A stretch of 64,000 nt of DNA, taken from Escherichia phage DCP80. The notes beneath the pieces were generated by a model. The model was not told the DNA's origin. It did no database searches and was given only the letters and a program-made list of their open reading frames with translations. Positions 20,063-44,192 of the stretch are shown in pieces. Made by a program: the position numbers and the translations under genes. The DNA lies in the sequence record PQ671644.1. The stretch is one strand, 5' to 3'. Numbering within the stretch: the stretch's first letter is position 1; each line of letters begins with the position of its first letter.

Positions 20063-20806
20063 ATGACACGTAACGAATATATCCAGGCCTTTAACGCAAC
20101 TATCGACACAAAAGTAAAACCATTGACAGGCGAATCGGCTATCCTTTTAATTATCAATTATTGGTTAAATCAGATTGATTCGACGATTGTTGCATCTGGT
20201 CGCTTCAAGAAAGACATTGCAACTATTGCGAGTCGTGCCGGTAATGATGATATCAAGAAAACTTTTAAAGGTTCCAGAGTCCTGGCGTACCTGGTTAATA
20301 AAGACCTTCTTCATAAGTTTGGTGTTGAATCCAACCGCGGTAAAGGTACAATTGGGTATCATTGGTTTGGCGATGTTGAAAAATACTACCTTGATAAACA
20401 AGGCTATACTGTTTCTGAATTCGCACATTGCTGGGCTCGTGAATTCAGAGATAACAAAATGTCTATCATAAAATCAGCGACAAAATTGATGGGCGGTGAT
20501 TTTCGCACTATCTCCCATTTGGCTGAGCACATGATAAAGGTTAAAGAGTCTGGTGAAAACCAGGTAATTATTACAGTTAAGCATGAGTTCTTTACGCCGG
20601 TGGCTACTCCAGAAAATGTCAAAAAGTATCTTGATGTTGCCTGTACGCTTTCTCATCAGCTGGTGTGTGCCCTTAACTATATGCGCACTGTTGAAAAAAT
20701 TAAAGTAGACCCTATCACCAGTGCTCATGGTTGGAAAGGTTGGAAAATTGTGGTGACATTACCGACGATGAAGATGAGGACGATGAATAATGTTTATTAT
20801 CCCTGA
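20063..20806 (+). CDS. Hypothetical protein
   Basis: 247-aa ORF, RBS GAGGAGAA. Confidence 0.6.
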
Positions 20807-21218
20807 TGATTACGAATTAACTCTTGAAAACATTGAAAGTGTTTCCGAAGAAGCTCAGGGACAATTTGATTCATTATCTGAAGCCTTAGAAAAAGACGAT
20901 ATAAATATTATTGTAGAAAACATGTTTGCAGCCGGTGAATACGAAAAAGCAACGGTTATCGGCGCTCTGAATGAAGGTGTTCAGCTTAACGAATTTATCG
21001 TTAAACATGTATCGTCTCGCGGTGAGTTAACCCGCACAAAAGACCGAGCTACTCGTAAGCGTAATGCTTTCCAAACAACTGGTCTTTCTAAAGCTAAACG
21101 TCGTCAAATTGCCCGTCTGGCTACTAAAACGAAAAGAGCAAACCCATCTACGCAAATCAGAGCAGAGCGCAAGCGCAAAAAAGCTCGAGCTAAGCGTAAA
21201 GCATTCGGACTTGATTAA
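20790..21218 (+). CDS. Possible prohead core protein (gp68 position, upstream of gene 21)
   Basis: 142 aa with strongly basic C-terminus; position and size match T4 gp68; sequence not verified. Confidence 0.4.
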
Positions 21219-21856
21219 TGGAACAGAAACCAGAGTTACTAATCGAACACTGGGGTCAACCGGGCGAAATTAAAGATGGTGTACCGATGTTGGAATCTCA
21301 TGATGGTTCCAGCAGCGGTTTAAAGCCAGGACTTTATATTGAAGGTATTTTCCTACAAGCTGAAGTTGTTAACCGTAATAAACGACTTTATCCTAAACAT
21401 ATTTTGGAAAAAGCCGTTGCGGACTATATCGCCGAACAGGTTGAAACCAAGCAGTCTCTTGGAGAATTAAACCATCCACCTCGCGCAAACGTTGACCCTA
21501 TGCAGGCAGCAATTATTATCGAGGAAATGTGGTGGAAAGGGAATGATGTATATGGCCGCGCGCGTATTATCGAAGGCGACCATGGCCCAGGTGATAAACT
21601 TGCTGCGAATATAAGAGCAGGTTGGATTCCTGGTGTATCTAGTCGTGGACTTGGTTCCTTGACTAAATCAGCAAAAGGTTATAGCATCGTTAATGAAGGT
21701 TTTAAATTGACGGTTGGAGTAGATGCAGTATGGGGGCCAAGTGCTCCGGACGCTTGGGTCAAACCAAAGCAGATTACAGAATCACAAACGGCAGTTGCCG
21801 ATACCAGTGCCGATGACGCCTTTATGGCTCTCGCAGAGGCTTTAAAGACGTTATAA
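21218..21856 (+). CDS. 21: Prohead protease gp21
   Basis: 212 aa, near-identical to T4 gp21 (GQPGEI...DGVPMLESHDG...GELNHPPRANVDP...). Confidence 0.92.
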   Translation: MEQKPELLIEHWGQPGEIKDGVPMLESHDGSSSGLKPGLYIEGIFLQAEVVNRNKRLYPKHILEKAVADYIAEQVETKQSLGELNHPPRANVDPMQAAIIIEEMWWKGNDVYGRARIIEGDHGPGDKLAANIRAGWIPGVSSRGLGSLTKSAKGYSIVNEGFKLTVGVDAVWGPSAPDAWVKPKQITESQTAVADTSADDAFMALAEALKTL

Positions 21857-41231: not shown

Positions 41232-43211
41232 ATGGCTTTATTATCCCCGGGCATTGAGCTCAAAGAAACAACGGTCCAAAGCACTGTTGTTCGTAACGCG
41301 ACGGGTCGTGCGGCGCTGGTTGGTAAATTCCAGTGGGGCCCAGCTTTCCAGGTAACTCAGATTACAAACGAAGTGGAACTTGTCGATTTGTTTGGTGGCC
41401 CGAACAATATCACGGCTGACTACTTTATGAGTGGAATGAACTTCCTTCAATATGGTAATGACCTGCGCACTGTTCGTGTTGTTAACCGTGATTTTGCTAA
41501 AAACGCATCTCCGGTAGCAGGGAACATCGAAAGTACAATCGCTACTGCTGGTTCTAACTATGCAGTCGGTGACGCTATCCAGGTTAAATACAACCAGACT
41601 GTTGTTGAAACTTCTGGCCGTATCACCAAGGTTGACGTTGACGGGAAAATCCTCGCGGTCTTCATTCCGTCTGACAAAATTATTTCCTTTGCAAAATCTG
41701 TAAACCAGTATCCTGCTTTAGGCCCGGCTTGGGCTGCTGAAATCCTGACCACTTCTTCAGGTGTGTCTGGCACGATTACCCTCGGGAAAATTGTTACCGA
41801 TTCTGGTATCCTGTTGACCGAAGCAGAAAATAGTGAAGAAGCTATTACCTCTCTGGAATTCCAGGCTTCCCTGCAGAAATATGCAATGCCGGGTGTTGTT
41901 GCTCTTTATCCTGGTGAAATCGGTTCGACTCTCGAAGTTGAAATCGTTTCCAAAGCTGCTTATGATGCTGGCTCTTCAAAGATGCTTGACATCTATCCGA
42001 ATGGCGGTTCCCGTGCTTCTGTAGCTCGTGCAGTGTTTAACTATGGCCCACAGTCTGACGACCAGTATGCAATCATCGTTCGCCGTGATGGTGCTATCGT
42101 TGAAAACGTCGTTCTGTCAACTAAAGAAGGCGATAAAGACGTTTACGGCAACAACATTTATCTGGATGACTACTTTGCAAAAGGTACTTCCAATTACATC
42201 TATGCAACTTCTCTGAACTGGCCAAAAGGTTTTGCAGGCATCATCAATCTGATGGGCGGTATTTCTGCAAACGACCAGGTGACCGCTGGTGATTTGATGC
42301 AAGGTTGGGACCTGTTTGCTGACCGTGAAGCACTGCATATTAACCTGCTTATTGCTGGTGCTTGTGCTGGTGAAGGTGATGCGACTGCTTCCACTGTTCA
42401 GAAGCACGTAGTTTCTATCGCTGACGAACGTCAGGATTGCTTGGCATTTATCTCTCCACCGAAAGGTCTGTTGGTTAACGTTCCACTGACCCGCGCAGTG
42501 GATAACCTGATTGACTGGCGTACAGGTAGTGGTGCATTTGATACTGATAACATGAATATCAGCACGACTTATGCAGCGATTGATGGCAACTATAAATATC
42601 AGTATGATAAATATAACGACGTTAACCGTTGGGTTCCTCTGGCAGCTGATATGGCTGGTCTGTGTGCTCGTACTGATGATGTTTCTCAGCCTTGGATGTC
42701 TCCGGCCGGCTATAACCGTGGTCAGATTCTGAACGTTCTGAAATTGGCAATCGAACCACGTCAGACTCAACGTGACCGCATGTATCAGGAAGCTATCAAC
42801 CCGGTTGTTGGTTTCGCAGGTGGCGATGGTTTTGTTCTGTACGGTGATAAGACTGCAACTAAAGTTCCATCTCCGATGGACCATATCAACGTTCGCCGTC
42901 TTACGAATATGCTGAAGAAAAATATCGGTGACGCATCCAAATATAAACTGTTTGAGCTTAACGATAACTTCACTCGTGCATCATTCCGTATGGAAACTTC
43001 TCAATACTTGGATGGTATTCGTGCGCTCGGTGGCATTTATGAAGGTCGTGTAGTTTGTGATACTACTAACAACACCCCAGCGGTCATAGACCGAAATGAG
43101 TTTGTTGCTAGTATATATTTTAAACCGGCAAGGGCGATAAATTATATCACACTTAATTTCGTAGCAACAAGCACGGGCGCTGATTTCGATGAGCTGATTG
43201 GACCACAATAA
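41232..43211 (+). CDS. 18: Tail sheath protein gp18
   Basis: 659 aa, MALLSPGIELKETTVQSTVV... near-identical to T4 gp18. Confidence 0.95.
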   Translation: MALLSPGIELKETTVQSTVVRNATGRAALVGKFQWGPAFQVTQITNEVELVDLFGGPNNITADYFMSGMNFLQYGNDLRTVRVVNRDFAKNASPVAGNIESTIATAGSNYAVGDAIQVKYNQTVVETSGRITKVDVDGKILAVFIPSDKIISFAKSVNQYPALGPAWAAEILTTSSGVSGTITLGKIVTDSGILLTEAENSEEAITSLEFQASLQKYAMPGVVALYPGEIGSTLEVEIVSKAAYDAGSSKMLDIYPNGGSRASVARAVFNYGPQSDDQYAIIVRRDGAIVENVVLSTKEGDKDVYGNNIYLDDYFAKGTSNYIYATSLNWPKGFAGIINLMGGISANDQVTAGDLMQGWDLFADREALHINLLIAGACAGEGDATASTVQKHVVSIADERQDCLAFISPPKGLLVNVPLTRAVDNLIDWRTGSGAFDTDNMNISTTYAAIDGNYKYQYDKYNDVNRWVPLAADMAGLCARTDDVSQPWMSPAGYNRGQILNVLKLAIEPRQTQRDRMYQEAINPVVGFAGGDGFVLYGDKTATKVPSPMDHINVRRLTNMLKKNIGDASKYKLFELNDNFTRASFRMETSQYLDGIRALGGIYEGRVVCDTTNNTPAVIDRNEFVASIYFKPARAINYITLNFVATSTGADFDELIGPQ

Positions 43212-43231
43212 GGCTTTACATCTGATTTAAT

Positions 43232-43900
43232 TTGGGCTATAATGCGCGTATGTTAATAAATACGCGCAAGGATTTACAAGTGATTATAGATAAATTTGTT
43301 GAAGTTAAAATCATGTACTGTAATTATCAGTATTTTTTGGATTTGGGATACGACTTGAAACCATTAGGTGCCGCTAAGTGGGGCTATAAATCACAAGTGA
43401 TTATGGCTAAAGTTGAAGATATGCTCCCGGGTTCAAACAAATATGTCAATTGTCAATGTGATAAATGTGGTGCTACATTTAAACAAAGAATTGCCAGGAA
43501 CACAGATGTGTGCTATCCATGCCGCAAAAATTCTTTTATGAAGGGAAATAAATTAGGCGAAGCAAATAAAGGAAAGGTTATTTCCTGTATGCAAGGTGAT
43601 AAACATCCAAGATGGAATCCTAACAAAAAAGAATTTGATGCATATGGAAGACGTGTTAGATGGTTAACTCTCAAACAAAAAGATATTTGGTCAAAATGGG
43701 AAAATGCAGATAAGATAGGAAAATGTGGTGTAGAAGGTGCATATCAACTTGACCACAAAGTTTCTATTGCATATGGATTTTATAATCACATACCAGAGAC
43801 TGTTATCGCTTCGCTCAACAATTTATCTATAGTCACTTGGGAATCTAATAGGTCCAAAGGAAAATCAAATAGTATTGACTTATGGGATATATTATCCTGA
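43232..43900 (+). CDS. HNH endonuclease with N-terminal Cys cluster (free-standing homing-endonuclease-like)
   Basis: 222 aa; CQCDKCG...CYPCRKN zinc-ribbon-like motif and YQLDHKVSIAYGFYNHIPETVIASLNNLSIVTWESNRSKG HNH motif; sits between 18 and 19 where T4 has no gene. Confidence 0.65.
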   Translation: MGYNARMLINTRKDLQVIIDKFVEVKIMYCNYQYFLDLGYDLKPLGAAKWGYKSQVIMAKVEDMLPGSNKYVNCQCDKCGATFKQRIARNTDVCYPCRKNSFMKGNKLGEANKGKVISCMQGDKHPRWNPNKKEFDAYGRRVRWLTLKQKDIWSKWENADKIGKCGVEGAYQLDHKVSIAYGFYNHIPETVIASLNNLSIVTWESNRSKGKSNSIDLWDILS

Positions 43901-43924
43901 CAGTAAATGTAATTAAGCAGTAAA

Positions 43925-43978
43925 CCGTAGAACCATTATACAATGCTATAAATAAAAGCATATCATCGGTTCTACGGA
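43925..43978. repeat. Perfect 10-bp inverted repeat CCGTAGAACC / GGTTCTACGG with 34-nt loop
   Basis: Direct inspection; the loop contains a TATAAATA box. Confidence 0.8.
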
Positions 43979-44035
43979 CTCCTCAGAGCTCCTCCAGCGA
44001 CCTAAATACATTTATTGATGAATCATATTACCTAG

Positions 44036-44043
44036 TATAAATA
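44036..44043 (+). promoter_or_regulatory. T4 late promoter box TATAAATA upstream of gene 19
   Basis: Exact TATAAATA about 53 nt upstream of gene 19 ATG. Confidence 0.55.
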
Positions 44044-44095
44044 CATGCATCAGGGACGCGTTCGCGCGACCTGTGTCTATAAAGAGGATTCCTTA

Positions 44096-44126
44096 ATGGA
44101 GTTGACCGATATCACACGCGCTTTCG
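44096..44126 (+). CDS. 19: Tail tube protein gp19, first 10 codons (cut by N-run)
   Basis: MELTDITRAF resembles T4 gp19 MFVDDVTRAF. Confidence 0.55.
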
Positions 44127-44192
44127 NNNNNNNNNNNNNNNNNNNNNNNNNNNNNNNNNNNNCTTTTGCCTGACGTTCAGCTTCTTCTTGTG

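Follow-up and report, generated by a model that had tools for sequence, protein, structure and literature searches.

The 64,000-nt stretch of Escherichia phage DCP80 analyzed here (PQ671644.1; hereafter the window, to whose positions all coordinates refer) carries an additional gene on the + strand, at positions 43280–43900, between the tail sheath gene 18 and the tail tube gene 19. The gene probably encodes a free-standing HNH (ββα-metal) homing endonuclease of the ORF19.1 family, named after its member in phage T6. Its anatomy, its distribution, the motif and predicted fold of its product, its recombinant composition and its association with particular codons of gene 18 were observed, and constitute the grounds on which nuclease activity, a target and mobility are proposed below.

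The mechanically delimited open reading frame (ORF) at this place runs from 43232 to 43900 on the + strand and comprises 222 residues counted from a TTG codon at 43232. It was described with this length, and with a Cys cluster and an HNH motif, in a first-pass annotation of the window. The Cys cluster and a D-H...N...N motif are indeed present, but the length is likely overestimated. The first residues of every homologue correspond to those encoded from GTG 43280 (M-I-I-x-K-F-V), a Shine-Dalgarno sequence (AAGGA, 43268–43272) is located 7 nt before this codon, and the 1994 record of T6 makes the same GTG start call. Because of the homologue starts and the upstream AAGGA, the real gene most likely encodes 206 amino acids starting from GTG 43280.

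The protein is predicted to consist of two modules. The N-terminal module (43370–43525, + strand) is a treble-clef zinc finger formed by Cys60, Cys63, Cys78 and Cys81, and presumably binds DNA. The C-terminal module (43592–43897, + strand) is a putative HNH-like (ββα-metal) nuclease domain containing the pair D158-H159 (codons 43751–43756), N181 (43820–43822) and N190 (43847–43849). The four cysteines and the D-H...N...N residues are conserved in the alignments, with D158-H159 invariant in alignments of 34, 32 and 108 sequences. The 108 relatives, which derive from the best-scoring representatives among 3609 profile matches, are 21–48% identical to the window protein, and D158, H159, N181 and N190 are the only columns invariant among them. 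Because these residues are retained from 21% identity upward while the rest of the domain varies, the active site appears to be under selection.

The AlphaFold2 model has a predicted local distance difference test (pLDDT) score of 88 for the whole protein, and a pLDDT of 89 with a predicted template modeling (pTM) score of 0.77 for residues 100–206. In this model, D158-H159 lies at the end of strand 155–159, which is the position expected for the Asp-His pair. In HNH domains, the His of this pair acts as general base. The invariant asparagines occupy the Asn positions of HNH domains, with N181, at the place of the structural Asn, preceding strand 182–186 and N190, at that of the metal ligand (Asn or His), located in helix 187–193. 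The best structural matches of the C-terminal domain are I-HmuI and small phage HNH nicking enzymes (Gme HNH, 4h9d; GVE2 HNH, 5h0o; T5 SciA, 9qgx); a Foldseek search of the whole model against the PDB gave no significant match.

The first-pass annotation had proposed a hidden Markov model (HMM) search for HNH and seg/mob endonuclease families. No curated profile recovered such a domain: searches of the window protein with Pfam, NCBIfam and PDB-sequence profiles returned no HNH model above threshold, Pfam gave neither HNH_3 nor any Mob-type match, and no GIY-YIG domain was matched by Pfam in the window protein or its relatives. The only Pfam signal was a sub-threshold one to the treble-clef zinc finger DUF4379, and leucine-rich-repeat matches in the profile searches were dismissed as spurious. 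The HNH assignment is based on the motif and the predicted fold. Four of the 108 relatives match HNH_4 weakly, with a best E of 1.8e-4; the single match inspected reached 20.9 bits, below the cut-off of 22. The domain is paired elsewhere with NUMOD3 (13 of 108, best E = 3e-15), treble-clef fingers or helix-turn-helix (HTH) domains at its N-terminal side, a modular architecture typical of homing endonucleases. As modeled, the C-terminal domain is thus a probable HNH-like (HNN-variant) nuclease module missed by current curated models, whose profile retrieves 3609 cluster representatives at E <= 1e-3. The whole protein matches PHROG 5104 (phrog_5104), a family of unknown function, with E = 6e-81.

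The distribution of the family is that of an optional insert. Members were found by tblastn in 239 phage records, compared with about 2043 records that encode a gp18 homologue, as well as in 4 of 80 gp18 loci of IMG/VR that were gathered regardless of an insert. The genera represented are Tequatro-, Dhaka-, Gapriver-, Karam- and Gelderlandvirus, and further members occur in phages of Klebsiella, Erwinia, Serratia, Acinetobacter, Aeromonas, Shewanella and Sinorhizobium. In nearly every inspected locus, the gene is located between the sheath and tube genes. The gene has this position in T6, pSs-1, QL01, VR7, Salmonella phage S16 and Karamvirus, and in phages of Klebsiella, Erwinia, Serratia, Pectobacterium, Acinetobacter, Aeromonas and Shewanella. 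In Sinorhizobium phage phiM12 the gene also follows gene 18, with a NosD-like gene next to it instead of gene 19.

A comparison of the 18–19 region across relatives, as suggested in the first-pass annotation, revealed a presence/absence polymorphism. Among closely related genomes, the carriers are the window itself, the metagenome contig L022, VR7, RZ, DK-13 and TH57, and the gene is absent from VR20, VR25, SP18, TH41 and about 20 others. It is also absent from T4, whose empty gap between genes 18 and 19 had been correctly noted. The closest relatives by gp18 (VR20, SP18 and VR25, with 98–99% amino-acid identity) are all without the gene; for VR20 and SP18 the identity to the window gp18 is 98.9%. 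The borders of the insert are sharp, starting at the gene 18 stop codon and ending just before the shared spacer. The gene of the window is intact and 99% identical to the copy in an independent metagenome contig. In Acinetobacter phage 133 (L012 1669–3746), rnlA is split into rnlA-A and rnlA-B by Acj133p227, a protein whose C-terminal domain belongs to the ORF19.1 family. Presence/absence polymorphism with sharp borders and family members that lie elsewhere or interrupt genes are characteristics of free-standing homing endonuclease genes. So are the location of the insert in a spacer flanked by conserved, essential genes of the same orientation and its own predicted expression signals. Distribution and context therefore back the initial comparison with a free-standing homing endonuclease.

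A distant subtype (30–36% identity, with a longer zinc-finger region) is found at the other end of the spacer, upstream of gene 19, in entries L007, L008, L009, L021 and L028 (IME540, Bp7, VR26, Serratia phage 4S and an IMG/VR contig). It is positioned 3 nt upstream of gene 19 (37 nt in Bp7), and is closely preceded by a TATAAATA box in IME540, Bp7 and Serratia phage 4S. Codons 8–9 of gene 19 are the unusual Arg-Ala codons AGG/AGA GCC in four of the five genomes with this subtype. Dhakaviruses contain a further gene of about 193 amino acids between genes 19 and 20 (L003 3888–4469, L007 3756–4337, L008 3778–4359), which the Bp7 annotation names an HNH endonuclease; the same annotation gives the portal gene 20 in two pieces (L008 4417–5642).

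A further feature of the locus is an allele of the neighboring gene 18. A block of mostly synonymous differences is located at the 3' end of that gene (43125–43170, + strand), with the core ATA AAT TAT at 43137–43145. The window and VR20 differ in 20 codons of gene 18 (18 of them synonymously) within the last 210 nt, and in 24 codons within the first 1770 nt. A scan of 60 codons compared 15 distinct loci in which the insert directly follows gene 18 with 70 distinct insert-free loci. By far the closest link was that of ATA, present in 13 of the 15 carriers and one of the 70 non-carriers (p = 1.9e-12), followed by AAT, present in 15 of 15 and 14 of 70 (p = 4e-9), both p values ignoring phylogeny; the next best codon reached about 3e-6. 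The associated codons specify I-N of the conserved motif S-I-N-Y/F-I-x-L-N-F-V, within which most carriers share the synonymous codons ATA-AAT-T(A/T)T for I-N-Y/F. The contrast is found within genera, between T4 and pSs-1/T6, and between VR20/TH41 and the window, L022 and VR7. When carriers are set against the 10 closest non-carrier genomes, the counts are 11/12 and 1/10 (p = 2e-4); the within-genus comparison is limited to about 10 such genomes by the few close relatives in IMG/VR.

Exceptions to the association are L052 and POP12, which have the gene and an incomplete motif, and L031, a Tequatrovirus-like IMG/VR contig of 8.7 kb that has ATA AAT TAT and no gene, and may be 'empty but immune' or have lost the gene precisely. 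In gene 19, of which the first 45 codons were scanned, no sharp allele was linked to an insert just after gene 18. The simplest reading of these sequence data is that the ATA-AAT-TAT block would be the homing target, an immunity polymorphism or a marker that is always co-converted. On the minus strand of the window (43137–43148), the carrier allele also gives rise to a perfect extended -10 element, TGATATAAT, which is missing from the allele of insert-free genomes and whose TG part is not conserved in other carriers.

The gene itself is a recombinant. The window protein is 48% identical to that of T6 and 56% identical to that of VR7. Nucleotide identity to VR7, analyzed in sliding windows, is 90–100% up to 43287 and from 43676 onward, and drops to 22–60% in the intervening segment (43288–43675, + strand), which covers the N-terminal two-thirds of the gene. 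The domain-wise comparison of the proteins shows the same split, with 37% identity for residues 1–98 and 92% for the C-terminal 75 residues (132–206). Three other pairs display this discordance between N- and C-terminal parts (32/97, 26/88 and 33/91%), and it is reversed between IME540 and Bp7 (97% in the N-terminal and 48% in the C-terminal part). The copy in the window has an N-terminal part of type A, with a PLGAxKWG insertion and an RNTDxCYxCRK finger, and those of VR7 and T6 are of type B. Because the discordance is found in five pairs, the two N-terminal types have been recombined repeatedly onto lineage-specific catalytic halves at this locus.

The insert also brings putative expression signals, which follow the gene 18 stop codon in the order promoter-like site, hairpin, Shine-Dalgarno sequence and GTG. 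The predicted promoter is of the sigma-70 type (TTTACA-17 nt-TATAAT, 43215–43243, + strand) with 11 of 12 consensus matches, and the same layout is present in VR7, QL01 and the Klebsiella, Erwinia and Karamvirus carriers. The alternative of a middle promoter of the MotA type was ruled out; in middle promoters the MotA element is expected 11–13 nt from the -10 box, and the GCTTTA element present here is 19 nt from it. The hairpin is located between the -10 box and the Shine-Dalgarno sequence (43243–43268, + strand), with a 9-bp stem (TGCGCGTAT / ATACGCGCA) and an 8-nt loop, and has a calculated folding energy of -14.6 kcal/mol (z = -3.7). Its stems differ yet remain complementary in the Klebsiella, Erwinia and Karamvirus carriers (TGCACATA/TATGTGCA, CGCACGTA/TACGTGCG and CGGCTAC/GTAGCCG). 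A transcript from the predicted sigma-70 site would begin inside the 5' arm and hence would not form the hairpin, and read-through late transcripts from gene 18 would include it. The hairpin adjoins the Shine-Dalgarno sequence without covering it, an arrangement that resembles the case of seg43(25) (PMC2988022).

A mechanism of spread that would account for these features can be outlined as follows. The gene of the cassette would be expressed from its own sigma-70-type promoter, and in a mixed infection the zinc-finger module of the protein would bind the allele that lacks the gene. The C-terminal D-H...N...N domain would then nick or cut this allele, the likely site being the conserved stretch that codes for S-I-N-Y-I-T-L-N-F-V near the gene 18 3' end, some 70 bp before the point of insertion. 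Repair by recombination with the carrier genome would copy the cassette, including promoter, hairpin and gene. The same repair would copy the adjacent sequence of gene 18, whose ATA-AAT-TAT variant would shield carriers from cutting. The active site of I-HmuI is of the HNN type. Because the D-H/N/N arrangement of the window protein resembles it, nicking is a plausible alternative to double-strand cutting.

Several observations weigh against a homing endonuclease. In the literature, nuclease activity, a cleavage site or mobility was found for no member of the family; searches for ORF19.1 or gp19.1 gave only papers on Candida, and a review of T4 mobile elements does not mention the gene. The position of the gene is constant in very distant phages, so that long vertical retention with repeated loss may be conceived. 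The codon association is uncorrected for phylogeny, and the uniformity of the motif across distant genera could reflect a cis element that serves the gene; the AGTATAAATT of T6 and pSs-1 agrees with the late-promoter box in 7 of its 8 positions. Finally, copies with N-terminal types A and B share the same allele of gene 18, which is odd if the N-terminal domain sets specificity.

An active nuclease might instead be kept because it benefits the phage, by excluding or degrading co-infecting relatives, by stimulating recombination near the late genes, or by helping in packaging as do the HNH proteins associated with terminases. This is unlikely, as the closest relatives and T4 package their DNA and grow normally without the gene, and the T4-type terminase has its own nuclease. 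Mobility is indicated, moreover, by the sharp borders, by a paralogue that interrupts another gene and by the polymorphism of the flank linked to the insert. Exclusion of competitors and homing are, however, mutually compatible.

We consider it similarly unlikely that the protein is a decayed or domesticated endonuclease, which now only binds DNA or RNA (as a late regulator of tail genes, for instance) or has no function. The missing match to a curated HNH model and a motif that reads HNN and not HNH would agree with decay, as would the copy of Acinetobacter phage vB_AbaM_3014, which matches in two pieces, and that of S16, whose annotation spans the 3' half only. However, known HNH enzymes with an HNN variant of the motif, such as I-HmuI, are active, the D-H...N...N residues show no variation at all in the 108 relatives, the most distant of which are 21% identical, and neither the intactness of the window gene nor its near identity to an independent metagenome copy suggests degeneration.

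A homing endonuclease of the ORF19.1 family thus being the favored assignment, its relationship with known systems can be defined. The copies of T6 and VR7 share with the window gene the family, the 18–19 locus, the GTG start and the length class. Database names for the family range from 'hypothetical' and 'homing endonuclease' to 'type II restriction endonuclease' and 'head morphogenesis protein'. In a review of 2010, T6 is credited with one unnamed 'other HNH' homing endonuclease gene (PMC2993671). The gene resembles MobA-E of T4 in being free-standing between conserved genes and in combining an HNH-type motif with a zinc-finger-type module; the mob genes are likewise patchily distributed among T-even relatives (PMC2988022, PMC10055350). 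It differs from them in the order of the modules, as the zinc finger precedes the nuclease domain and the reverse is true for Mob proteins, and in the D-H...N...N form of the motif. The putative promoter of the cassette is also of a different kind, with sigma-70 -35 and -10 elements, whereas the endonuclease-specific promoters of T4 are middle or late (PMC2988022).

In its predicted spread, the gene would follow the 'intronless homing' of SegF and SegG, in which a neighboring essential gene of the endonuclease-less phage is cut and repair co-converts flanking markers (PMC2993671). The linked synonymous block of gene 18 would be the counterpart of these co-converted markers. The catalytic family is another one, SegF and SegG being GIY-YIG endonucleases, and cleavage and marker exclusion are hypothetical for the window gene. 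Hef of phage U5 is also a free-standing endonuclease of T4 relatives that is neither Seg nor Mob, and 'Hef-like' genes adjoin the tail-tube genes of ViI-like phages (PMC3296691). A relationship with Hef was considered for this neighborhood and ruled out, as Hef belongs to the Vsr-like (EDxHD) family (PMC3239194) and structure and domain searches of the window protein gave no match to a Vsr-type fold or domain. The gene is therefore of a known kind, an ORF since 1994, and as a member of the T6 ORF19.1 family it belongs to neither the Mob, the Seg nor the Vsr-like Hef group. What is new is the assignment of the domain from its fold and invariant residues, together with the shuffling of domains, the leader hairpin with covarying stems and the codon signature in gene 18.

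Taken further, these results may be joined in a broader reading, which we offer tentatively. ORF19.1 would represent a large HNH-like subfamily missed by curated models (3609 cluster representatives), whose members located directly after gene 18 would home into a highly conserved sheath motif. The synonymous triplet ATA-AAT-TAT (for ATY-AAC-TAY) would act as a portable immunity mark across genera, and recombination at occupied sites would combine two interchangeable zinc-finger modules anew with catalytic domains that are specific to each lineage.

In T4-like phages, free-standing homing endonucleases shape genome mosaicism and decide the survival of markers in mixed infections. To our knowledge, only a handful have been tested, nearly all of them from T4. 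Members of the ORF19.1 family lie at a junction of structural genes in many therapeutic and model phages (T6, the RB5 group, Klebsiella and Salmonella phages), mostly under the annotation 'hypothetical', and their probable nuclease domain escapes curated HMM libraries. The predicted target in gene 18, of about 15 bp and with natural resistant and sensitive alleles, makes the hypothesis cheaply testable.

Downstream of the inserted gene, the native spacer between genes 18 and 19 is preserved as a whole, the insert being placed directly 3' of the gene 18 stop codon. Gene 18 (41232–43211, + strand), the probable host of the target site, encodes a protein with five Pfam sheath domains. The spacer contains an inverted repeat (43925–43977, + strand) with arms CCGTAGAACC (43925–43934) and GGTTCTACGG (43968–43977). 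The arms are complementary at 10 of 10 positions, as first annotated, and are separated by a 33-nt loop; the repeat ends at 43977 and not at 43978 as had been given. Two late-promoter boxes TATAAATA were confirmed at the positions initially reported, box 1 in the loop of the repeat (43947–43954, + strand) and box 2 proximal to gene 19 (44036–44043, + strand). The window has 15 such boxes, with 4.6 expected.

The arms of the repeat are identical in VR7, VR20 and TH41, of which VR20 and TH41 are without the gene and have both boxes, at -147 and -60 relative to the gene 19 ATG. The empty spacer of T4 (116 bp) has two TATAAATA boxes, each with a hairpin upstream, and this T4-type spacer is present in T6 on the 3' side of its insert. 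The equally empty L030 also has two boxes with hairpins, box 2 of the window recurring there. The first-pass annotation had suggested a displacement or duplication of the gene 19 late promoter by the insertion, which would make the repeat and the second box by-products, and the presence of two boxes and a perfect repeat immediately 3' of the insert might suggest such a rearrangement, but this explanation is most improbable and was rejected because the insert-free VR20 and TH41 have the same repeat and boxes, with two boxes also in the empty T4 and L030 and no similarity between the flanks of the two boxes in the inspected stretch. Repeat and boxes are ordinary punctuation of the 18–19 spacer and not products of the insertion, which corrects the view of them as insertion scars.

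About four perfect 10-bp inverted repeats are expected per 64-kb window and 11 were seen, so that a single one is within chance expectation. Folded as RNA, the spacer repeat reaches -19.2 kcal/mol (z = -5.7). An intrinsic terminator was ruled out because no T-run follows the repeat, and an Rfam search of 43100–44126 gave no match. A repeat enclosing a TATAAATA box recurs with unrelated arms in the spacers of L030 and of Acinetobacter phage Mokit (L019). The layout of a repeat enclosing a late-promoter box after gene 18 suggests a conserved regulatory arrangement for the late transcripts of genes 18 and 19.

Gene 19 is represented in the window by its first 30 nt (44097–44126, + strand), which start with ATG 44097 and are the same as the gene 19 starts of VR7 and VR20. 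It is cut off by an N-run (44127–44162), beyond which lie unrelated minus-strand genes. The scaffold of the window is scrambled and contains 15 short N-runs (at 2053, 7308, 12027, 16528, 24922, 29046, 33153, 36995, 40719, 44127, 47537, 50945, 54358, 57668 and 60917), which separate blocks of about 3.3–4.5 kb that are not adjacent in real genomes. Examples are the minus-strand gp56 and gp61 genes after the gene 19 start, and the gp68/gp21 region at 20764–21420. The genomic context of the inserted gene is nonetheless real, because the natural metagenome contig L022 (5.5 kb), with 97.9% identity across 41614–44126 of the window, has the same inserted gene followed by intact genes 19, 20, 67, 68 and 21.

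A last observation concerns the genomes without the insert. In VR20 (L002 2987–3019) and TH41 (L023), the 33 nt from the gene 18 stop codon to the repeat translate as IIAWNELIS*, which is loosely similar to the C-terminus of ORF19.1, IDLWDILS*. The match is short and may be due to chance; alternatively, the stretch may be a relic of a deleted ORF19.1 copy.

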